Source: an uncultured Candidatus Saccharibacteria bacterium
GTDB taxonomy: Bacteria > Patescibacteriota > Minisyncoccia > Minisyncoccales > GWA2-46-15
Direction: 5' to 3'
DNA length: 64,000 bases
Assembly: GCA_964437545.1 (NCBI GenBank)
Contig: CAYTHH010000001.1
Span: 14,381-78,380, forward strand
The notes beneath the pieces are model-generated. The model saw only the letters and a list, made by a program, of their open reading frames with translations. It was not told the origin of the DNA and made no database searches. The translations under genes were made by a program, and so were the position numbers. Below are positions 5,336-32,024 of this stretch, piece after piece (within the stretch, counting starts at the first letter, position 1; the number at the start of each line of letters is the position of its first letter).

Positions 5336-6760
5336 TTATTTAATTTTCGCTTTTCTTTGCTTTTCTGTCAATAATTCTTCTAAATTATAAACATTCCCAG
5401 CCCCCATTATTATTAGAATTTCATTGCTTTTTAGATTTTTTTTCAGGTATTGCGTTGTTTCTTTGAGTGTCGGGATATACAGTGTTTTTGTATTTTGTAT
5501 CTTGTATTTAGTATTCTGTTTTTTTGAGATGGCCGAAACCAGTTTTTTAGAGCTAACTTTCTTTTTTAATTCAGCGCTTTCCCGGCCTGAAACGCTATAA
5601 ATATCAGTTAAAATAAGCTGGTCAATTTGAGCTTTAGCTAAAACTTTGACAAAATCTTTGAATAAGTAAAAGGTTCTTTGGTATTGGTGAGGCTGGTAAA
5701 CACAAGTGATCTTTTGTTTGGGGTATTTTTGCCTGGCAGCTTTTAAAGTAACTTCAATCTCGGTTGGGTGATGGGCATAGTCATTGATGAGATTAATTGT
5801 TTTCCCATTCGCTCCGCTTATTTTAATCTTTTTCTGCTCAAATCTTCGCCAAGCTCCCTGATATTCAGATAAAGCTTTAAAAGAAACTTTGTCTTTTATC
5901 TTTAGAATTCTAGCTAAAGTTAAAGCCGCTAAGGCATCGGCTAGGATGTGGTTACCGGGCAGTTTTAGGATTTGTTTCAGCTCGATAATGTCTTTTTGCG
6001 CGGTTGGGTAAAATTTAGTCTGGTATTTTGTTTCTGGTATTTTGTATTTATCATTTAATGTTTTCTTTGTGTTAACATCCTTTTTATTTGCGATCAAGGT
6101 GCCATTTTTCGGCAAGTGGTTAATGAATTTTCTAAATGTTTTAATGATATTTGTAAGGTTTTTAAAATAGTCTAAGTGGTCTTTATCAATGCAGGTTAAG
6201 ACAATGATTGTTGGGCAGTAATTTAAAAAAGAACTTTTGTATTCGTCAGCTTCAATAACGAGTATCTTGTATTTAGTATTTTGTATCTTGTATCCGAATT
6301 TTTTACCAAGGCGGAAATTACTATTACCGAATTCTTTTAATTTAGTGCCGATGATCACGGTTGGATCCAGTTTGGCTTTGATTAAGATTAAAGAGATCAT
6401 TGCTGTAGTTGTTCCTTTGCCATGAGTGCCGGCAACGGCAATAGTAAAATGGTCTTTAGTCAGCTGGCCTAAGTTCTCTGGATAGCTTTGACAGGGAATA
6501 TTTTCTTTAAAGGCCATTACAAGCTCAGGGTTATCATTAGTGATGGCTGGGCTATAAACGACTAAATTGGTATCTTTGGGAAGATTTTGTGATTGATGTT
6601 TGCCAATATTAATTTTAGTCCCTAATTTTTCTAAGGATTTAGTGATTTCAGATTCAGTTAAATCTGATCCAGAGACTTGATGGCTTTCTGCCTGTGAAAG
6701 ATAATATCTGGCCAGAGCCGAAACCCCGATCCCGCCAATGCCGATAAAATGTATTTTCAT
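5336..6760 (-). CDS. murC: UDP-N-acetylmuramate--L-alanine ligase
   Basis: MKIHFIGIGGIGVSALARYY N-terminus, Mur-ligase central and C-terminal domains, 474 aa. Contains three in-frame YKIQNTKYKI-type low-complexity inserts. Confidence 0.85.
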   Translation of the reverse strand: MKIHFIGIGGIGVSALARYYLSQAESHQVSGSDLTESEITKSLEKLGTKINIGKHQSQNLPKDTNLVVYSPAITNDNPELVMAFKENIPCQSYPENLGQLTKDHFTIAVAGTHGKGTTTAMISLILIKAKLDPTVIIGTKLKEFGNSNFRLGKKFGYKIQNTKYKILVIEADEYKSSFLNYCPTIIVLTCIDKDHLDYFKNLTNIIKTFRKFINHLPKNGTLIANKKDVNTKKTLNDKYKIPETKYQTKFYPTAQKDIIELKQILKLPGNHILADALAALTLARILKIKDKVSFKALSEYQGAWRRFEQKKIKISGANGKTINLINDYAHHPTEIEVTLKAARQKYPKQKITCVYQPHQYQRTFYLFKDFVKVLAKAQIDQLILTDIYSVSGRESAELKKKVSSKKLVSAISKKQNTKYKIQNTKTLYIPTLKETTQYLKKNLKSNEILIIMGAGNVYNLEELLTEKQRKAKIK

Positions 6761-8337
6761 CTTATGGGAAGTTCAATGAAAAAGGTTGAACCCTTGTTCG
6801 TACCTCTTGATTCAAACCAAACTTTGCCTTGGTGCATTTCAATAAACTTTTTAGCTACACAAAGTCCCAATCCTACCCCTTCGGTCCATAAAAGAGAACC
6901 CTTTTTACCTCGGGAAAAACTCTTGATTTGCTCCAAATCTTCTTCTTCCAAGCCAATTCCCGTATCTTTAACCTTAATAATTATATTTTTTTGGCTTTTT
7001 TCTATGCTAATGACAATACCGCCGTCTTTAGTGTAGTGGATAGCATTATCAACCAAATTCAAGATAGTTTGGCTAATTTTTTCCTTATCAACAATTATTT
7101 CCGGAATTATTTCTTTTGGTTTTTTAAACTTTAAGTAAAGGTTTTTTTCTTTAGCCCTTATCTTCATTGTTGTAACAATATTCACGATAATTTTTTCAAT
7201 CGAGGATTTTTCTAAATCAAGTTTGATTTTATTACTCTCAATCCTAGAGACATTAAGAAGGTGGTTGACCATGGTGATTAGTCTTTCATTTGCCTGGTAA
7301 ATATTTTTTAGAGGGGCTTTGGCCTTATCTTCAATATTGCCGTAAGTATTCTCCAATAAAAGAGATATATAACCTTTAATGGCTGATAAGGGGGTTCTTA
7401 ATTGATGAGAAGCAATGGAAATGAATTCGGACTTTGATTCATCAAGCTTTTTTAATTCTTCATATGCCAACTCAAGTTTTTTCCGATAGTCAATTTCGTT
7501 AATGACACTTCTGATTAAAAAATACCCAAAAAGTAGAAATAATAAAAAGGCAAACAAACTAACTACTCTCAGAGCAGAAAAAGAAAGAATTACTTCGGTG
7601 AGAAGAATAATTCCCATAATTCCGACGAAAAACTCAGATGCCAAAACCTTTATATCGAAAAGATAGTATTTTGAAATTGAATAAGCAGTAATTCCGCTGA
7701 AAATTATTGTTGCCAGCGGTCCGTAATAAGCAGTCTGCTGAACCCCAAAAAGCGGTAAGAGAATATTACTTAAAAAACCAAGAAAAAGAGCAGAAGAGAT
7801 TCCTCCTATAAAATAAATCAATTGGTATTTTTCCAATTTATTCGTAATTCTTTTGAGTTTTTTTGAAATTAAATAAATTCCTCCTCCAGCGAAAACAAGA
7901 TAATGAAGAATATAAAGAGAATAAAATGTTCCATAGATAGTTTCTCTTTCAGCCGGTCCAGTGATAATTTCCGCTTTATCTACTAGGGGCGTAAAAAGAG
8001 TTAATGCAAAAAAGACTATCATCCACAAAGAAATAGCCCAAAGTAACTTTTTAGATACTTTAAATGTTTCACTTGGAAAAATTAGAGAAAATTTTAAAAG
8101 ATAAAAAAGCATTACTAAAACGATTGCAAAATTGAATCTTCCTATCCAAAGAATTATTATCGGAGACTCAATGATATAAAAAAACAATAAAGAGACTTGC
8201 CATCCGATTACCGACAAAATGAGAGCAAAGAAGGTAGAGTTTATTTTTTCTTTAGTGTTTCTGAGTAAAACAAAAAACCCGAGTAAAAAATTGCCAGCAA
8301 TTGAAATTAAATAAAAAGCTAAAGTTAATTCGGACAT
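6757..8337 (-). CDS. sensor histidine kinase (multi-TM sensor, HisKA + HATPase_c)
   Basis: About 7 N-terminal TM helices, H-box ASHQLRTPLSAIKGY, and N/G boxes (LVDNAIHYT, DTGIGL, GVGLGL). Confidence 0.85.
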   Translation of the reverse strand: MSELTLAFYLISIAGNFLLGFFVLLRNTKEKINSTFFALILSVIGWQVSLLFFYIIESPIIILWIGRFNFAIVLVMLFYLLKFSLIFPSETFKVSKKLLWAISLWMIVFFALTLFTPLVDKAEIITGPAERETIYGTFYSLYILHYLVFAGGGIYLISKKLKRITNKLEKYQLIYFIGGISSALFLGFLSNILLPLFGVQQTAYYGPLATIIFSGITAYSISKYYLFDIKVLASEFFVGIMGIILLTEVILSFSALRVVSLFAFLLFLLFGYFLIRSVINEIDYRKKLELAYEELKKLDESKSEFISIASHQLRTPLSAIKGYISLLLENTYGNIEDKAKAPLKNIYQANERLITMVNHLLNVSRIESNKIKLDLEKSSIEKIIVNIVTTMKIRAKEKNLYLKFKKPKEIIPEIIVDKEKISQTILNLVDNAIHYTKDGGIVISIEKSQKNIIIKVKDTGIGLEEEDLEQIKSFSRGKKGSLLWTEGVGLGLCVAKKFIEMHQGKVWFESRGTNKGSTFFIELPIR

Positions 8338-8340
8338 TAA

Positions 8341-9180
8341 TTAAGCCTTAAAATATTTTGCCTTTAAGGAAACCCATTCTTTCAAGTTTAGATTGGGTAG
8401 ATTTTCAGCGTAAGCGTTTTTGGCTAAGTGAAAATATGGCATGGCTACTAAAGCGCAGCCAATATCTCCTGCTTTTATTTCTTCGGCAATTAAATCAATA
8501 AAGATCTCTTTAAATTTTACATTCTGGTTTTTAGAAATTTCTAAAACGCTATGTAAAGAATTTAAACTTATCTTTTGTCTGGCTGAGGTGCTGATACCCT
8601 CTAAACTTAGAATTTGACCGACATCTTCCATTAAAAGACAGGCATATTTACTGCGATCTTCAGGAATACCAATAGCCAGAGTAGTGTAGAGTGCGGTTGG
8701 GCCAGGGGCGAATTGGAATCTGCCGGCGCAAGGTACGTGCGAACCAGGCAACAAGGGAAAATGCTTCTCGTCTCTGGTTCCGAAAAGGGCTAATGATGCT
8801 TTTCTTAGGTTTTCACCGTTTCTAATGGTTATGCCATCAAAATCTTTGCCTAAAGATTTTGGTGAAAGATACTGGGGGAGCTCAATTTCATCAGTTCTGG
8901 CCAAGTCATAACCCCAAATCAAGCCACGGGAGCCGATAAAAGAAGAAACAATTATCATATTAATCTGACCGATAAAAGTTCCGTTGATTTCGGCGCGGTC
9001 ATAAGCGATAATTGAATCCAGCACTTTTGAGCCAACATGACTGAAGGTTTCCCTTGAGATGCCAATACTTAAAACTGGAGCGGTGATGTAACCGTTTTCA
9101 TAGGGATAGCCAATACAGTGATTATCATATGGGCTAAGAGAGGAACTGAGTATTTTATCCTTTAAAAATAGTGGTTCCAT
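8341..9180 (-). CDS. pyruvoyl-dependent histidine decarboxylase family proenzyme (HdcA-like)
   Basis: Motifs ISPY, AYDRAE, FIGQINMIIVSSFIGS (compare Lactobacillus 30a HdcA YIGQINMTTAS-SFTG, Ser-Ser self-cleavage site), GYDL, HFPLLPGSHVPCA (compare HYPAPGSFIVCA), LLMEDVG (compare MFVEDAG). 279 aa matches the roughly 310-aa proenzyme size. Confidence 0.7.
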   Translation of the reverse strand: MEPLFLKDKILSSSLSPYDNHCIGYPYENGYITAPVLSIGISRETFSHVGSKVLDSIIAYDRAEINGTFIGQINMIIVSSFIGSRGLIWGYDLARTDEIELPQYLSPKSLGKDFDGITIRNGENLRKASLALFGTRDEKHFPLLPGSHVPCAGRFQFAPGPTALYTTLAIGIPEDRSKYACLLMEDVGQILSLEGISTSARQKISLNSLHSVLEISKNQNVKFKEIFIDLIAEEIKAGDIGCALVAMPYFHLAKNAYAENLPNLNLKEWVSLKAKYFKA

Positions 9181-9250
9181 ATTCCATTATTTTACAACAC
9201 TTATTATCAAAATGCAAAGACTCCACCTTGTTTGGCGGAGCCCTTATGTT

Positions 9251-10018
9251 TTACTCTTTCCCCCTCTTTTTTTTGTGGCCGAGAATTTTTTCGACGACAA
9301 TGATCAACCTAATACCTCTTCTTGTGTCCAGATTTTGACAGATTTTTAGAAGCGGCCTGAAATCCTTGTTGAAGATAAAAACGATGTCTTTTTCTTCAAC
9401 TTGGGTTCGGAAGATTGGTTCAAAACCCATATATAAGCCAAGCTTGTAAATGGGTGAAGCAGGTGTTGTCCAGAAAAGGCAAGAAATAACTTGTCTCTCG
9501 AGCCATGCCCACTCCAGCCATGGCTGCAACAGCCCCCTTATAGGTTCGATGCCGTTTCGGAACCCGGCGACAATAGCAAACTCGTCTGCGTAAACGAATC
9601 TATTGACGTTTCGTCGCAAGAGCTGATTTGTGAGTTGATTAAAGTCAGTTGGCGACTTTCCTAATGATTTTGAGATTCTATTTTCAAGTTGATATGGATT
9701 CAGAATCTCACCCCAAGCAAAACCGACCACCGGCATTTTCTCGTTTCCTGCCATAGTGACTAGAAAGGAGGTTTTACGCCCTACTTCCATTTCTAGTTTT
9801 TGCTGGACAGTTTCTTGGCTCCAGTCTTCGACCCAGTAAGAAGCTTCTTTAAAGACCTTTTGATAGGCCTTTATCAAAGCTTGAAGGATTGCCCCGACAG
9901 GTGGTTGATGAGCTAGTATAAATCTTTCTGGAACCTTGATTGGCGCCATATTAGGTTTGTAAATTTTCATCAGCCTGGTCGCCAACTCCAAAATCCAACG
10001 AACAATCTTGTACTTCAT
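9251..10018 (-). CDS. hypothetical protein (possibly acyltransferase-fold); candidate accessory partner of the HdcA-like gene
   Basis: 255 aa. No motif confidently recognised. An acyl-CoA N-acyltransferase-like strand-helix pattern is only a guess. Confidence 0.3.
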   Translation of the reverse strand: MKYKIVRWILELATRLMKIYKPNMAPIKVPERFILAHQPPVGAILQALIKAYQKVFKEASYWVEDWSQETVQQKLEMEVGRKTSFLVTMAGNEKMPVVGFAWGEILNPYQLENRISKSLGKSPTDFNQLTNQLLRRNVNRFVYADEFAIVAGFRNGIEPIRGLLQPWLEWAWLERQVISCLFWTTPASPIYKLGLYMGFEPIFRTQVEEKDIVFIFNKDFRPLLKICQNLDTRRGIRLIIVVEKILGHKKKRGKE

Positions 10019-10144
10019 CTTAACCTCCTTTATAAAATAGTTTTGAATTTACTGGTTTTATTATAACACAAATATAAAAAAAGAAAAGATCCGATTTAAT
10101 TTAAACCAGGAAATTTTAAATCTTAAGCAAGAGAAAGACCAATG

Positions 10145-10195
10145 CTGGCCAGAGCCGAAACCCCGATCCCGCCAATGCCGATAAAATGTATTTTC
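10145..10195 (-). pseudogene. murC 5' remnant (MKIHFIGIGGIGVSALA...) created by the duplication
   Basis: Reverse translation gives the exact murC N-terminus, followed by unrelated sequence and an early stop. Confidence 0.7.
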
Positions 10196-10232
10196 ATCTT
10201 ATGGGAAGTTCAATGAAAAAGGTTGAACCCTT
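10145..10232. repeat. 88-bp perfect direct repeat, second copy (first copy 6708-6795)
   Basis: Identical 88-mer ctggccagagccgaaaccccgatcccgccaatgccgataaaatgtattttcatcttatgggaagttcaatgaaaaaggttgaaccctt. It spans the HK 3' end, the intergenic region and the first 17 codons of murC. Confidence 0.9.
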
Positions 10233-11798
10233 ATCAATGCCGTCTGATTCTGCCCAAATTCTACCCGAATGCATTTCAACAAAGTGTTTAGCAATATATA
10301 ACCCAAGACCAGCTCCTTCGGGATGAGATTGAGATCCGATCACTCCCCGAGAAAAACTTCCAAATAGCTTAGCTAAATCTTTTTTACTCATTCCACCTCC
10401 AGTATCTTTTATTGTAATTTGAAATTTGGAATCTATAGTTTTAATATTAACCATTATCCCTCCTTTTTGTGTGTATTTTATGGCATTATCCACTAAGTTT
10501 AAAATAACCTGTCGTATTTTATTTTTATCTAACGTGGTTTTAGGAAGAGACTCAGTTGGTTTTTCAAGTTTTAAATAAAGTTTTTTCTTTTCTGCTGTAA
10601 TCTTTAAATCATTAATCACTCTCATGACTATTTCTTCTATTAAACATTCCTCTAGCTCAAGCTCTACTTTTCCTGATTCAATCCGAGAAATGCTTAAAAG
10701 ATCATTCACTAATTTAATTAATTTTTCATTGGAATTATATACATTTTCCAATGGCGTTTTAACTTTATCGACTAATTTTCCATAATAACCTTCAAGGATC
10801 ATTGAAATGTATCCCTTGATCGCAGTCAACGGTGTTCTGATTTGGTGAGAAGCGATGGAAATGAATTCCGATTTTGCACTGCTTAATTTTTCAACCTCTT
10901 TATAAGCGATTTGAAGTTTTTCGTTTAATATTGCTAATGTTTTGCGTTGTTCTATTTCGCTAAGAACACTTTTAATGAGTAGATAACCGAAAATGCAAAA
11001 GAGAGCTAAAATAATACCATATGATATTCTCCATAATAAAGTTTGAGCAGTAAGTATTTGAGAGAATAAAATTACTAAAATTATTCCTATTAATGTTTCT
11101 GTCAAAATAATTTTAATTCCAAATAACTGTTTAGCTATTATCGCATAAGCAGTGTAGCCTAAGAAAAAAATAATGGAAAAATTTCCAAATTGATAAAACT
11201 CATAACTGCCCCGGATGGCAGGAAAAACTACGTTAAAAACAATATTCATTATGAAGAATATTGAAAAGCCAAAGAAAAAATATTGTGTCTGAATTTTTTC
11301 TTTTGACGATAGCTTTAGAAATCTTATGAAGAGAATTATTAAAGATAATAACCAGATTATTCCCAGCATGGCAAAAGTCGGGAAAAAATTACCCAAAATA
11401 AGGTTTGTTCCCCAATCTTTCGATTCTATATCTTTAATAACCAAGGGCGTGAAAAGCGAGACAAGGGCGATGGTAACCGAAATAAAAAATATTATTTTTT
11501 CAAGAACAAGATATCTTTTTTGTTCTTTTGGGAATAAAAACGAAAAAAGAAATGTTGTGAAAAAGAATAAGGATAAAATAAAATATACAAGCCTATTCCA
11601 GATTAAAGAATTTGGTAACTGAGATGGAATGTCTGAAATAAATGCAAAAGTAATCCAAAGTAATGCTAAAAAGGTCATTACACAGAAAAGTTGATTTAAT
11701 TGGCTTTTTTTATTCGAAAAATAAACCAACAGGATTAATAAAATCCCTATGAAATCAATTAAAATTATGAGTATTGTTGAGATAAAAAGAATATCCAT
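10194..11798 (-). CDS. sensor histidine kinase, paralog of 6757..8337
   Basis: Same architecture. H-box ASHQIRTPLTAIKGY. C-terminus identical to the first kinase (KGSTFFIELPIR). Confidence 0.85.
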   Translation of the reverse strand: MDILFISTILIILIDFIGILLILLVYFSNKKSQLNQLFCVMTFLALLWITFAFISDIPSQLPNSLIWNRLVYFILSLFFFTTFLFSFLFPKEQKRYLVLEKIIFFISVTIALVSLFTPLVIKDIESKDWGTNLILGNFFPTFAMLGIIWLLSLIILFIRFLKLSSKEKIQTQYFFFGFSIFFIMNIVFNVVFPAIRGSYEFYQFGNFSIIFFLGYTAYAIIAKQLFGIKIILTETLIGIILVILFSQILTAQTLLWRISYGIILALFCIFGYLLIKSVLSEIEQRKTLAILNEKLQIAYKEVEKLSSAKSEFISIASHQIRTPLTAIKGYISMILEGYYGKLVDKVKTPLENVYNSNEKLIKLVNDLLSISRIESGKVELELEECLIEEIVMRVINDLKITAEKKKLYLKLEKPTESLPKTTLDKNKIRQVILNLVDNAIKYTQKGGIMVNIKTIDSKFQITIKDTGGGMSKKDLAKLFGSFSRGVIGSQSHPEGAGLGLYIAKHFVEMHSGRIWAESDGIDKGSTFFIELPIR

Positions 11799-11806
11799 TA
11801 AATATC

Positions 11807-13336
11807 TTATATAATGAATTTCATCTTACCACTTTTTGATAACTTAAACTCATTCTGCCCAAATTTTCGAATTTCAATCCTTGGGATACAAAGTTCAGAA
11901 TTATCTTCATAAGACCGTTTAAAATCATGGTTCCGTGTTAAAAGCGTATTCAAAATTAGGTGCTTATAATCTTCTTTTAACTTAATTTCTTCTTCTTGGG
12001 TTATGTTTTTATCTTTTTTTAACTCTAAGTAGATATAAAATCGCCAATCGCCATTCTCATCAGTTTTTTTAGATAACTTAAAGTTAGTAAAATTTGAGCT
12101 TTTATCAATTATATCTTGGATTGTCATGGGAAAAACATTTGCTCCGTCTAAAGAAATACAGCTTTCTCTCCCTTCTACAAATAAGAATGGCTGCGCATAT
12201 GGTTTAAAATAGGGAGCTTTTTCTTTAAGCTCACCCAGAAGGTCTATGCCCTCTTCCTTAAAAATTTCTAAAACCTTTTTGAATGAGATCATGCCGCCAA
12301 TATCTCGAATATTGTATCTTATTAACGGTATTGATCCTCTGAAAGTAATAATTAAATTCTCATCTTCTTCTTCGACAAAATAAGCAGAAGTATTCAACTG
12401 TGTTAAGCTTACAACATTTCTTTTTTTCCCCAAAATTTTTGCTTGAATGTTTTTATTACTGACAATAAAATCTTGTATTAAAGCTGTCAGGCAATTACCA
12501 TAACTTATTCCTCCTGCATCCGCTGTTCCGTAAACATCAACAATATTATTCAATTCTTTTGGTTCTTTGGCAAATTTATTTATTAGATTTTGTCGAAAAT
12601 CATAGGACATTCCCTCGCCGCCATAGTAAAATTTAATATTATGTTTTTTCCAATCTATCCCATCTTTTTCTCCAGTATCTAAAAATAATTTGAAAAAATA
12701 AGGATATCCGCCAAAAATTATTTGATCATACTTATTAATGAACTTTTTGATAATTGCTAATGTTCCTTCCAAATCAGACCCGGGAGTTGCTATAGTTAAT
12801 AAGCCTTTATTGCGTAATGCAATATCTTTCCAGAACCAAGTATTTAGTTCTCCTGCTATATAGTTGCCCAAAGAGAAACAAACAATGATAAGAGTGGATT
12901 TTTTTTGGGTTTGCCAAATGTTTCTTGCCATCATTTCAAAATAAAGAGAAATCATTTTGTCTTGAAATGAGTTCCTTGGCCAAAATACCGGTTCTCCAGT
13001 TGTGCCAGAAGTAGTTGCTAGCGTAAAGAGATCTGAATATGGTTCAAGAAGCCGTTCATCCAAATCATAATGAAAGATATAATTTTCTTTAGTTGTAACT
13101 GGCACATACTTTTTAAAATCTTCAATCGTTTGTATTTTTTCATGATTTTCAACCCCATTTTTCTTTAAAAAATCCTTATAAGCCGAAACTTTTTCTGCTA
13201 CTTCGTGAAAAGTGTTTAATGCCTTTTTTTCTCCTTGTTTTTCCCACCACTCTGCTGGTCTCGATGCAAAAAACTTATTCGCCCTATCAGGGTTAGATGT
13301 TATAAATTTTCGCATTATATTTCCTATTTTTGACAT
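11807..13336 (-). CDS. adenylate-forming enzyme of the PaaK / coenzyme F390 synthetase / CapK family
   Basis: LATTSGTTGEPVFWPR AMP-binding motif, 509 aa. Confidence 0.6.
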   Translation of the reverse strand: MSKIGNIMRKFITSNPDRANKFFASRPAEWWEKQGEKKALNTFHEVAEKVSAYKDFLKKNGVENHEKIQTIEDFKKYVPVTTKENYIFHYDLDERLLEPYSDLFTLATTSGTTGEPVFWPRNSFQDKMISLYFEMMARNIWQTQKKSTLIIVCFSLGNYIAGELNTWFWKDIALRNKGLLTIATPGSDLEGTLAIIKKFINKYDQIIFGGYPYFFKLFLDTGEKDGIDWKKHNIKFYYGGEGMSYDFRQNLINKFAKEPKELNNIVDVYGTADAGGISYGNCLTALIQDFIVSNKNIQAKILGKKRNVVSLTQLNTSAYFVEEEDENLIITFRGSIPLIRYNIRDIGGMISFKKVLEIFKEEGIDLLGELKEKAPYFKPYAQPFLFVEGRESCISLDGANVFPMTIQDIIDKSSNFTNFKLSKKTDENGDWRFYIYLELKKDKNITQEEEIKLKEDYKHLILNTLLTRNHDFKRSYEDNSELCIPRIEIRKFGQNEFKLSKSGKMKFII

Positions 13337-13365
13337 AGTTTTATTTTTCTATTAATAAAAAACTC

Positions 13366-13395
13366 CATTTTTAATGGAGTTCTGCAAATTTTAAG
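13366..13395 (-). terminator. intrinsic terminator
   Basis: Minus-strand RNA aacuccauu-aaaa-auggaguu followed by UUUUUUA. Confidence 0.5.
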
Positions 13396-13530
13396 ACATC
13401 AATTTTTACTTGAAGAAAAAATATTAGTATTTTTCTCATATGATATAGAGGATTCATATATTATTTTATCTTAAAATATTAGAAGTTGTCAACAAATCGC
13501 ATGGATCTATAATATATTGTAAAAAAACAG

Positions 13531-13560
13531 GGTAGCACCTAAGTGCTACCCCTTTCGACT
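13531..13560 (-). terminator. intrinsic terminator overlapping the stop codon of the ThiF-like gene
   Basis: Minus-strand RNA gggguagcac-uuag-gugcuaccc followed by UGUUUUUUU. Confidence 0.55.
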
Positions 13561-14315
13561 GGATCAAACTGCGTGACGAGCTGTGGAGTTTCATTTTTCA
13601 CCATTTTTATAATGGCGGAAACTCCCAGCATTGCTGCTGTGAAGGCGGCAATGATTGGTTGTGGATAGTGCCTTAATTCTCCCGTTTCCATCTGCTTCAA
13701 GATGGGGTAGAGATAAGGAGGGATATTGACACTTTCCATGATGTGATTCAGTGGTTCCATTGCAGGAATCTTTTCGAATTCCTTTAGGGTCATAGTGACT
13801 GGAATTCCCAAAAGGTTTTCAAAGACATTTTCTTTCTTAGGATCAAAAGAGAAAATGGCAGCCCCCCATCCTATATCAATAGGATAAAGGAACCACTTTC
13901 TTTGCTCTCGGCAAACCCTTGCCAGAGCAAGTGAAACTACGATTCCGGGCATTGGATCGATACAATCGATTACCACATTAACTAGAGAAGCGAAATCAAG
14001 GGCATTATTCTGGGTTACAAAATCTGCCCATGTCTCGATTACTGCTTCTGGATTGATGTTCAAAATGTGGTTTGACAAAGCAACAGCTTTGTTTTCACCG
14101 ACATCCTTAACACCATATGCCTGATGGTTGAGGTTTGCTACTTCAACTAAATCAGGATCAGCGAACAGGAATCGTTCAACTCCGACGCGGCATAATACTT
14201 CGGCGATGAAAGATCCCATTCCACAGCCGGCGATTCCGACACGGATTCGCCGTAGGTTTTCCTGCTCTTCTTTCGAGAGAAGCGGGAAATTCCTGGATAC
14301 CAATTCTTCGTACAT
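13539..14315 (-). CDS. ThiF/MoeB/HesA family E1-like adenylyltransferase
   Basis: Rossmann motif VGIAGCGMGSFIAEVL...FLFADPDLVEVANLNHQ, 258 aa. Confidence 0.7.
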   Translation of the reverse strand: MYEELVSRNFPLLSKEEQENLRRIRVGIAGCGMGSFIAEVLCRVGVERFLFADPDLVEVANLNHQAYGVKDVGENKAVALSNHILNINPEAVIETWADFVTQNNALDFASLVNVVIDCIDPMPGIVVSLALARVCREQRKWFLYPIDIGWGAAIFSFDPKKENVFENLLGIPVTMTLKEFEKIPAMEPLNHIMESVNIPPYLYPILKQMETGELRHYPQPIIAAFTAAMLGVSAIIKMVKNETPQLVTQFDPVERGST

Positions 14316-31953: not shown

Positions 31954-32024
31954 CTGCGGGGCTTGGATTCGAACCAAGATAGTCACCTTCAAAGGGTGAT
32001 GTCCTACCATTAGACGACCCCGCA
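31954..32024 (-). tRNA. tRNA-Gln (anticodon TTG)
   Basis: Cloverleaf: acceptor TGCGGGG/CCCCGCA, anticodon loop CTTTGAA, T-loop TTCGAAT, discriminator G. Confidence 0.8.

Follow-up and report, generated by a model that had tools for sequence, protein, structure and literature searches.

We analysed a 64,000-nucleotide stretch of DNA from an uncultured Candidatus Saccharibacteria bacterium (GenBank assembly GCA_964437545.1, contig CAYTHH010000001.1, positions 14,381 to 78,380 of the forward strand), hereafter the window, in which the region 8341-14315 encodes a protein of the pyruvoyl-dependent histidine decarboxylase (HDC) family amid genes for adenylating enzymes and sensor kinases. The window carries two independent cassettes in tandem, each composed of two enzyme genes and a dedicated seven-transmembrane (7TM) sensor kinase, and the PaaK-like and ThiF genes are separate from the HDC module. 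The cassette that includes the decarboxylase (cassette B) is made up of the following features, listed from its first gene to its third:

9251..10018, minus strand: P255, 255 aa, a putative N-acyltransferase with a GNAT fold; first gene of cassette B
9215..9246, minus strand: 13-bp, GC-containing terminator-like hairpin with T-rich tail in the interval from P255 to the HDC-like gene; predicted by consensus scan only
8341..9180, minus strand: HDC-family pyruvoyl-dependent decarboxylase proenzyme of 279 aa (PF02329); second gene of cassette B
8941..8946, minus strand: codons of Ser79-Ser80, the predicted serinolysis site, from the register with Lactobacillus 30a HDC and from invariance
6757..8337, minus strand: HK1, HisKA_7TM sensor histidine kinase (Pfam HisKA, HATPase_c, HisKA_7TM); third gene of cassette B

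Conservation of the cassette

HK1 begins 3 nt past the stop codon of the HDC-like gene, and its own end overlaps the start of murC. In the closest relative of this locus (L001), whose HDC-like protein is 91% identical to that of the window, the order is LigT, a 249-aa P255 homolog, the HDC-like gene, a 7TM kinase and MurC; a second kinase, a PaaK-like gene and a ThiF gene are all missing there. The same trio was found in a complete Nealsonbacteria genome, on other contigs of the Candidate Phyla Radiation (CPR) and in one Actinomycetota metagenome-assembled genome (MAG), in each case as a protein of ~250 aa without a Pfam match, an HDC-like protein and a HisKA_7TM kinase. The ~250-aa upstream proteins are homologous to each other, with E values from 1e-36 to 1e-129.

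Pyruvoyl histidine decarboxylases are textbook enzymes of food spoilage and acid resistance in lactic acid bacteria, and an earlier note on this DNA described the family as classically known from a few Firmicutes, a view that is outdated. A protein search with the HDC-like open reading frame (ORF) gave 439 clusters at E<=1e-3, and a scan of one genome per species, using the peptide patterns GQINMxxVSS and GPxG[LV]IWG[YH]D, gave 73 species-level loci, among which classical HdcA is under-sampled since the patterns were drawn from the window subfamily. These loci belong to many Patescibacteria lineages, Actinomycetota, MAGs labelled Gammaproteobacteria or Pseudomonadales, Acidobacteriota, Thermodesulfobacteriota, cultured Bacteroides species and one Methanophagales archaeon. 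Plasmid-borne copies of the family were found in Rhizobium, Salipiger, Methylocystis and Tetragenococcus.

All ORFs of 79 HDC loci were translated and then searched with profiles. In 43 of these loci the gene directly before the HDC-like one encodes a P255 homolog, and in about 45 a 7TM kinase comes directly after it. Loci with the trio come from Patescibacteria, Actinomycetota, MAGs labelled Gammaproteobacteria (a label that rests on MAG binning) and one Acidobacteriota MAG. Where the HDC-like protein matched that of the window at about E<1e-50, a P255 homolog was always directly upstream if upstream sequence existed, and the 7TM kinase came directly after it, with few exceptions, if downstream sequence existed. 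In five of these loci the P255 homolog is divergent and scores under the threshold; there, the ORF just before the HDC-like gene is nevertheless the one that best matches the P255 profile. Weaker HDC-like proteins (~E 1e-40; Bacteroides, most Acidobacteriota and others) were without both partners.

Clustering of the ORFs of 48 non-redundant trio loci returned as recurrent families HDC (47 loci), the 7TM kinase (46), P255 (36 by BLAST, 43 by hidden Markov model, HMM) and a response regulator (13); no transporter or other family recurs among them. The gap between the decarboxylase stop and the kinase start has a median of ~5 nt and is <=26 nt in 33 of 36 same-strand loci. Local GC content of the trio loci extends from 32% (CPR) to 65% (Actinomycetota, Vicinamibacterales), a span which indicates that the cassette truly crosses phyla. 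We thus deal with a distinct HDC subfamily that is inherited across phyla and travels with a GNAT-fold partner and a seven-helix sensor kinase, never with an antiporter. The kinases had been described as orphans, which holds insofar as no ORF with a REC domain was detected in the window; as to their relation to the decarboxylase, the 7TM kinase is its most constant neighbour.

Two loci are exceptions to the trio. At L038 the order is kinase, HDC-like gene, two genes for unknown proteins and two for receiver proteins, and at L045 (Cellvibrionaceae chromosome OZ252214.1, 5198-6717) the P255 and HDC genes adjoin toxin-antitoxin, NYN and Tae4 genes.

The decarboxylase

In the HDC-like protein the segment FIGQINMIIVSSFIGS corresponds to residues 69-84, with the Ser79 codon at 8944-8946 and the Ser80 codon at 8941-8943. 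The proposal that this ORF encodes a pyruvoyl HDC-family proenzyme with a Ser-Ser site was borne out by the profile search as well as by the predicted fold. Pfam PF02329 HDC ('histidine carboxylase PI chain') matched well above its cut-off (E 2.1e-40, 139.1 bits, cut-off 25) and over profile positions 7-286 of 294, and the Pfam model of pyruvoyl arginine decarboxylase gave a weak match. The NCBIfam equivalog TIGR00541 scored 118.8 bits, below its cut-off of 346.65, and with a score so far under the cut-off the protein is to be seen as a family member, not as an ortholog-grade HdcA.

S79-S80-F81 stands in register with S81-S82-F83 of Lactobacillus 30a HDC (1pya/1hq6/1ibt), and the same register was obtained by alignment with Tetragenococcus HdcA (28% identity, E 2e-30). 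Across an alignment of 35 homologs (42-91% identity) the residues D61, E64, S79, S80, F81, E185 and D186 are invariant; they are equivalent to D63, E66, S81, S82, F83, E197 and D198 of the Lactobacillus 30a enzyme, whose Lys155 position is occupied by Arg154, a conservative replacement. We take Glu197 to be the proton donor in Lactobacillus HDC and Glu66, Asp63 and Lys155 to be active-site residues. A mutagenesis paper on Glu197 and Glu66 (McElroy & Robertus 1989) is cited in PMC2720952. The AlphaFold2 model, computed from the 35-homolog alignment, reached a pLDDT (predicted local distance difference test) of 94.5 and displays the HdcA alpha/beta sandwich. Its top match in the PDB is 1pya_B (E 3e-11; TM score 0.59 for the query and 0.71 for the target), and the next matches are pyruvoyl arginine decarboxylases only. 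Judged by alignment and model, the protein is credible as a pyruvoyl HDC family member whose catalytic residues are intact. Compared with HdcA of Lactobacillus 30a and Tetragenococcus (PF02329; 1pya), it shares the fold (TM 0.71), the Ser-Ser-Phe cleavage site and counterparts of Asp63, Glu66, Glu197, Asp198 and Lys155 (as Arg154), but is only 22-28% identical and carries S51 and K52 in place of the Asp53/Asp54 pair.

Public annotation already assigns the enzyme to its family: a 91%-identical Parcubacteria protein bears the NCBI name 'histidine decarboxylase, pyruvoyl type'. This name, the family membership and the conserved catalytic residues would agree with the classical function of HdcA, that is, cytoplasmic histidine decarboxylation coupled to histidine/histamine antiport, providing acid resistance and proton-motive force; we nevertheless regard such a function as very improbable here. 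The Tetragenococcus plasmid has the order hdcC (antiporter)-hdcA-hdcB-hisS, and the classical context is hdcC(P)-hdcA-hdcB-hisS, whereas the HDC-like gene is placed between a GNAT gene and a 7TM kinase gene. Neither the 64-kb window nor any trio locus yielded a homolog of Tetragenococcus HdcC, HdcB or HisS, or an HdcP-type antiporter, and HdcB has no homolog among the ORFs of any locus examined. Bacteroides HDC-like genes from the same scan (L066-L075) have an HdcC-type antiporter ~0.7 kb downstream (E~1e-80) and no GNAT or kinase partner, as would be expected if cultured gut Bacteroides followed the classical decarboxylase/antiporter logic. Since the trio loci have no antiporter, the trio subfamily falls outside this logic, and moreover it misses the TIGR00541 equivalog cut-off by a wide margin. 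The public annotation as 'histidine decarboxylase' is over-specific for this subfamily and is corrected by the present analysis.

P255 has a GNAT fold

P255 had been considered unannotatable, which is true for profile databases (no match in Pfam, NCBIfam or PADLOC) and no longer true for its structure, as it has a GNAT fold and is a likely conjugating partner of the decarboxylase. A word-indexed search, even with a profile, retrieved only 12-13 relatives; an exhaustive HMM search of 1.84 billion proteins was needed and, at E<=1e-3, delimited a small family with 196 representative clusters. The AlphaFold model of P255, built from 12 sequences, has a pLDDT of 91 and contains the GNAT core fold. 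Among the Foldseek matches listed from the PDB nearly all are GNAT acetyltransferases, with Naa40/Naa60, insect dopamine/arylalkylamine, agmatine and polyamine N-acetyltransferases and SpeG at the top (E~1e-7, probability 1.0). In addition, a distant relative of P255 (P0236) matches Acetyltransf_1 at E 0.005, under the cut-off. At the position of the Q/R-x-x-G-x-G/A motif (beta4-alpha3) the P255 loop reads A-G-F-R-N-G-I-E-P, with G156 invariant in the family.

The GNAT amine N-acetyltransferases (Drosophila dopamine N-acetyltransferase 3te4, AgmNAT 7ciu, SpeG) are 8-14% identical to P255, with no detectable sequence similarity. Unlike them, P255 has a conserved ~40-residue N-terminal extension, a C-terminal helical extension and a non-canonical loop for coenzyme A (CoA). 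Acyl-homoserine lactone synthases (LuxI family: LasI, TofI, RpaI) and the N-acyl amino acid synthase FeeM were not ranked above ordinary acetyltransferases; they differ in motifs and in substrates (S-adenosylmethionine or amino acids with acyl-ACP, the acylated acyl carrier protein), and no sequence similarity to P255 was detected.

Several arrangements tie the family to the decarboxylase and to small molecules. P0172 is a natural fusion of 483 aa in which a P255-like part (residues 10-178) precedes a complete HDC domain (211-460) that has kept IVSSF, and at L079 the gene of an AMP-binding enzyme of FadD type stops 6 nt ahead of the P255 homolog; both favour small-molecule acyl transfer coupled to the decarboxylase. 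In P0202, P0219 and P0251 a methyltransferase domain is N-terminal to the P255-like domain, and such fusions suggest small-molecule tailoring. P255 might instead not act on an amine at all, and serve as an HdcB-like maturation or regulatory factor of the decarboxylase or as a protein acetyltransferase acting on the decarboxylase or the kinase. Its strict adjacency to the decarboxylase, once as a fusion, would suit such a role, as would the presence of the protein N-alpha-acetyltransferases Naa40/50/60 among its best structural neighbours and the requirement of classical HdcA for HdcB, the annotated maturation protein of the classical cluster. We find this improbable, given that P255 has no sequence similarity to HdcB (E 1.0), that dopamine, agmatine and polyamine N-acetyltransferases score equally in the fold searches, and that the family is coupled to an acyl-CoA-synthetase-like gene in L079 and fused to methyltransferases.

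The predicted hairpin 9215..9246 could set the ratio of P255 to HDC expression.

A second cassette with ThiF and PaaK-like genes

The other unit (cassette A) lies upstream on the same strand:

13539..14315, minus strand: ThiF/E1-like adenylyltransferase (PF00899 E 2e-29, PDB 9egb E 2e-18); first gene of cassette A
11807..13336, minus strand: PaaK/ANL-like adenylate-forming enzyme, by weak matches; middle gene of cassette A
10194..11798, minus strand: HK2, paralogous HisKA_7TM kinase (Pfam); third gene of cassette A

The neighbours of the decarboxylase are those that had been listed before, namely two HisKA_7TM kinases, ThiF and a weak PaaK-like enzyme, the latter matching TIGR02155 (E 9e-12, under the cut-off), PF00501, GH3 and PDB 4r1l (E 3e-5). 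A metagenome scan with the PaaK-like protein found eight loci (L080-L087). ThiF is directly upstream of the PaaK-like gene in all eight, and an HK2-type 7TM kinase directly downstream in every one with flanking sequence; in L081 and L083 a receiver-only response regulator comes next after the kinase. HDC and P255 are absent from all eight PaaK-like loci, and PaaK-like and ThiF homologs from all 79 HDC loci.

The earlier note viewed all these genes as one amine-forming or amine-conjugating module. A conserved module of that kind is plausible, and the P255-HDC-kinase trio is indeed conserved in related genomes; the six-gene arrangement is not, and the PaaK-like and ThiF genes fall outside the module and form a cassette of their own. 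A single pathway across 8341-14315, in which the decarboxylase product would be ligated by the PaaK-like enzyme, the ThiF-like E1 or both, could draw on the adjacency of the genes on one strand of the window and on the AMP-binding enzyme ahead of the GNAT-HDC pair in L079. It is hardly credible in view of the mutual absence of the two gene sets, the lack of PaaK-like and ThiF genes in the closest relative, the recombination scar between the units (described below) and a terminator-like hairpin and a strong promoter-like site inside cassette A.

These two elements belong to the leader between ThiF and the PaaK-like gene (13337-13538, minus strand), which is conserved in the intergenic regions of L080, L083 and L087. 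The hairpin comes right after ThiF, and the promoter-like site reads TTGACA-18-TAAAAT. A short ORF at 13371-13457, MNPLYHMRKILIFFLQ..., overlaps an apparent inverted repeat, and a second predicted hairpin with a T-run (13359-13383) is located just before the PaaK-like start, so that the leader could be an attenuator. An Rfam scan of the window and of this leader returned four tRNAs elsewhere and sub-threshold small RNA noise, with no match for the leader. The small ORFs between ThiF and the PaaK-like gene are loosely conserved and gave no convincing candidate for a ThiF precursor peptide. A defence-system reading was dropped as well, as PADLOC had no match for HDC, P255 or the PaaK-like protein and only generic E1 domains for ThiF.

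Junction of the two cassettes

Between the cassettes we identified a recombination scar, marked by the following features:

10145..10232, minus strand: 88-nt exact direct repeat, copy 1, covering 37 nt at the 3' end of HK2, the stop/start overlap and ~52 nt at the start of a truncated murC
6708..6795, minus strand: 88-nt exact repeat, copy 2, covering the 3' end of HK1 and the start of the intact murC
10100..10144, minus strand: remnant of a LigT 3' end with stop codon, directly after the murC fragment

Outside the 88-nt repeat the HK1 and HK2 genes are clearly diverged. The LigT remnant aligns to the LigT 3' ends of L001 and of the window with about three-quarters identity, and the truncated murC and the remnant are followed by the P255 upstream region. 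The resulting order in the window is LigT-[A]-murC'/'LigT-[B]-murC, an order expected if two versions of a LigT-[cassette]-murC locus were joined illegitimately, with the join at the short similar stretch TGGC(C/A)AG. The repeat and the murC and LigT remnants show that recombination joined cassettes A and B in this genome. L001 has cassette B only, and in L080 murC follows LigT directly and cassette A is found 2.8 kb further on. The scar shows the two cassettes to have been alternative occupants of a LigT-murC locus.

The tandem was also considered as an assembly artefact. Several short-k public assemblies break exactly inside the 88-nt repeat. This explanation was rejected because an independent JGI assembly crosses the HK2-murC'-LigT'-P255 junction: contig L093 of JGI 3300028167 spans window positions 10972..9215 at 99.9% identity.

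The intact murC (5336-6760) includes a repeated element with a period of ~14 nt at 5485-5521, 6018-6068 and 6250-6300, encoding K/N/T/Y-rich stretches (YKIQNTKYKI, KQNTKYKIQNTK) at three places of the Mur ligase that may be insertions. The tRNAs of the window, identified with Rfam, are at 31954, 47868, 55791 and 62016, all on the minus strand.

Sensor kinases and their matching with the enzymes

HK1 and HK2 each match HisKA, HATPase_c and the N-terminal 7TM region in Pfam, and HK2 matches HK1 at E 1e-108. Against HisKA_7TM (PF16927; cut-off 28.6 bits) HK2 scored 29.0 and HK1 23.3 bits, just under the cut-off. A response regulator adjoins the kinase in L003, L006, L012, L027, L031, L036, L044, L081 and L083. 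We know of no ligand for any HisKA_7TM kinase.

In a crude neighbour-joining tree of the sensor regions, computed without support values, the HDC-adjacent kinases of CPR, Gammaproteobacteria-labelled and Acidobacteriota genomes form one clade, to which HK1 of the window belongs. HK2 is in a different clade: the PaaK-adjacent kinases make up a separate clade shared with kinases that follow other enzymes, and the Actinomycetota kinases (convergent, with GAF domains) are a third group. Furthermore, E123 is found in 31 of 31 HDC-associated sensors and is replaced by I or V in the other classes, while the PaaK-associated class has D, N and I where the HDC-associated sensors have Y54, G66 and N69. 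Distances computed pairwise for HDC, P255 and the sensor domain correlate with r of 0.63-0.75, a value for which there is no null model.

Other enzymes also precede kinases of this type. In L020 (1369-5027) genes for a geranylgeranyl-reductase-like (GGR) protein and a UbiA prenyltransferase stand immediately before a 7TM kinase, and in L004 (4564-7069) a Methyltransf_20 gene and a 41-aa ORF immediately before a HisKA_7TM protein, both units being in tandem with an HDC cassette; in L081 (1918-4080) a small methyltransferase gene immediately precedes a HisKA_7TM protein. These three cases are anecdotes and not a census. That unrelated enzyme pairs each stand before their own clade of one sensor type suggests a general rule by which ligands may be assigned to HisKA_7TM kinases.

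Proposed function

We propose that cassette B encodes an enzyme pair that makes an N-acyl amine, together with a kinase that most likely detects the product, and we hold this proposal and its denial to be about equally probable. Judging by its conserved residues and fold, the 279-aa proenzyme would cleave itself between Ser79 and Ser80, converting Ser80 into the pyruvoyl cofactor. The mature enzyme would decarboxylate a free L-amino acid that is most probably basic, histidine being the best guess. P255 would then acylate the primary amine so formed, using an activated acyl donor, to yield an N-acyl amine; decarboxylation is placed before acylation because pyruvoyl catalysis needs a free alpha-amino group. 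The polytopic sensor HK1 would be functionally matched to the enzyme pair, most likely detecting its product, which is possibly a self-made signal, and would pass the signal on through a response regulator of the kind that is adjacent in other genomes and absent from the window.

Detection of the product by the kinase is favoured because the layout resembles that of comQXPA, agr and cqsA/cqsS. In comQXPA, agrBDCA, cqsA/cqsS and luxM/luxN, signal-making genes adjoin a multi-pass membrane histidine kinase, often together with a response regulator. These systems and the cassettes described here have in common enzyme genes beside a polytopic kinase and different enzyme sets combined with paralogous sensors. 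In contrast to them, the enzymes of cassette B are of wholly different families, and there is no precursor peptide. The biosynthetic genes are both adjacent to and co-inherited with the polytopic sensor kinase, as is expected of a synthase-receptor cassette.

A plain model in which the kinase regulates the operon is a serious rival, if a rather unlikely one in our estimate. The decarboxylase and the GNAT protein would then constitute a catabolic, detoxifying or amine-scavenging pathway, for example yielding an N-acetylated amine to neutralise or store, and the 7TM kinase would be a transcriptional controller that senses not the product but an external cue, be it the substrate amino acid, pH or the state of the membrane. 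Two-component genes commonly adjoin their targets, and response regulators, some of ~225 aa, adjoin the trio in several loci; the convergent kinases and the kinase-free pair described below fit this model too. It accounts less well for the absence of any recurrent transporter or further catabolic gene, for a kinase start only few nucleotides past the decarboxylase stop in most loci and for the unrelated enzyme pairs that each come with their own clade of 7TM sensor, to which a ligand-specific pairing fits better.

Several findings weigh against the proposal of an N-acyl amine sensed by HK1. In seven loci, in Actinomycetota, the kinase gene is convergent to the HDC-like gene, and thus the two are not co-transcribed there; at L045 the P255 and HDC pair occurs without a kinase; and no REC-domain ORF was detected in the whole 64-kb window by phmmer with two REC queries. 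The adjacency of a kinase to enzyme genes is equally expected for a plain regulator. The sensor tree without support values, the correlations without a null model and the locus retrieval biased by subfamily-derived patterns count in the same direction. As to P255, Pfam GNAT models gave only noise, with no match at E<=10 in 13 members of the family, and the canonical GNAT Q/RxxGxG/A loop is not recognisable (FRxGxxP instead); with the CoA-loop motif unrecognisable, we infer rather than observe the use of acyl-CoA. Finally, the substrate could not be assigned from the pocket. The acidic residue that holds the imidazole in HdcA has a counterpart in pyruvoyl arginine decarboxylase that holds the guanidinium, and the known catalytic and pocket residues are kept across the whole family, so that they do not discriminate between histidine and other basic amino acids; the caution in the earlier note that the substrate need not be histidine was well placed.

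Implications

In the searchable literature (themes of pyruvoyl HDC, HisKA_7TM, N-acyl-histamine and CPR) we found no description of the trio cassette, nor of the GNAT identity of P255, the fusion protein, the second analogous cassette or the recombination scar. The trio is composed of known superfamilies in an undescribed conserved combination, for which a signalling role is plausible. Even on a conservative reading, an orphan family of ~200 representative clusters has been assigned a fold and a likely role, and the analysis suggests a decarboxylase-acyltransferase-kinase unit that would make an N-acylated amine and be wired to its kinase.

To our knowledge, signalling in ultra-small Patescibacteria is almost unexplored. 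We tentatively put forward, as a possibility, that HisKA_7TM kinases and their upstream enzyme pairs are self-contained signalling cassettes, each making its own membrane-active ligand, and that the GNAT and pyruvoyl decarboxylase cassette may produce an autoinducer of the N-acyl-histamine type (or another N-acyl amine) sensed by the dedicated kinase. If true, it would be the first quorum-sensing-like system native to Patescibacteria, shared with Actinomycetota and other phyla by horizontal transfer. It would represent a new small-molecule signalling chemistry and would offer a testable handle on cell-cell and host-symbiont communication in ultra-small Patescibacteria.

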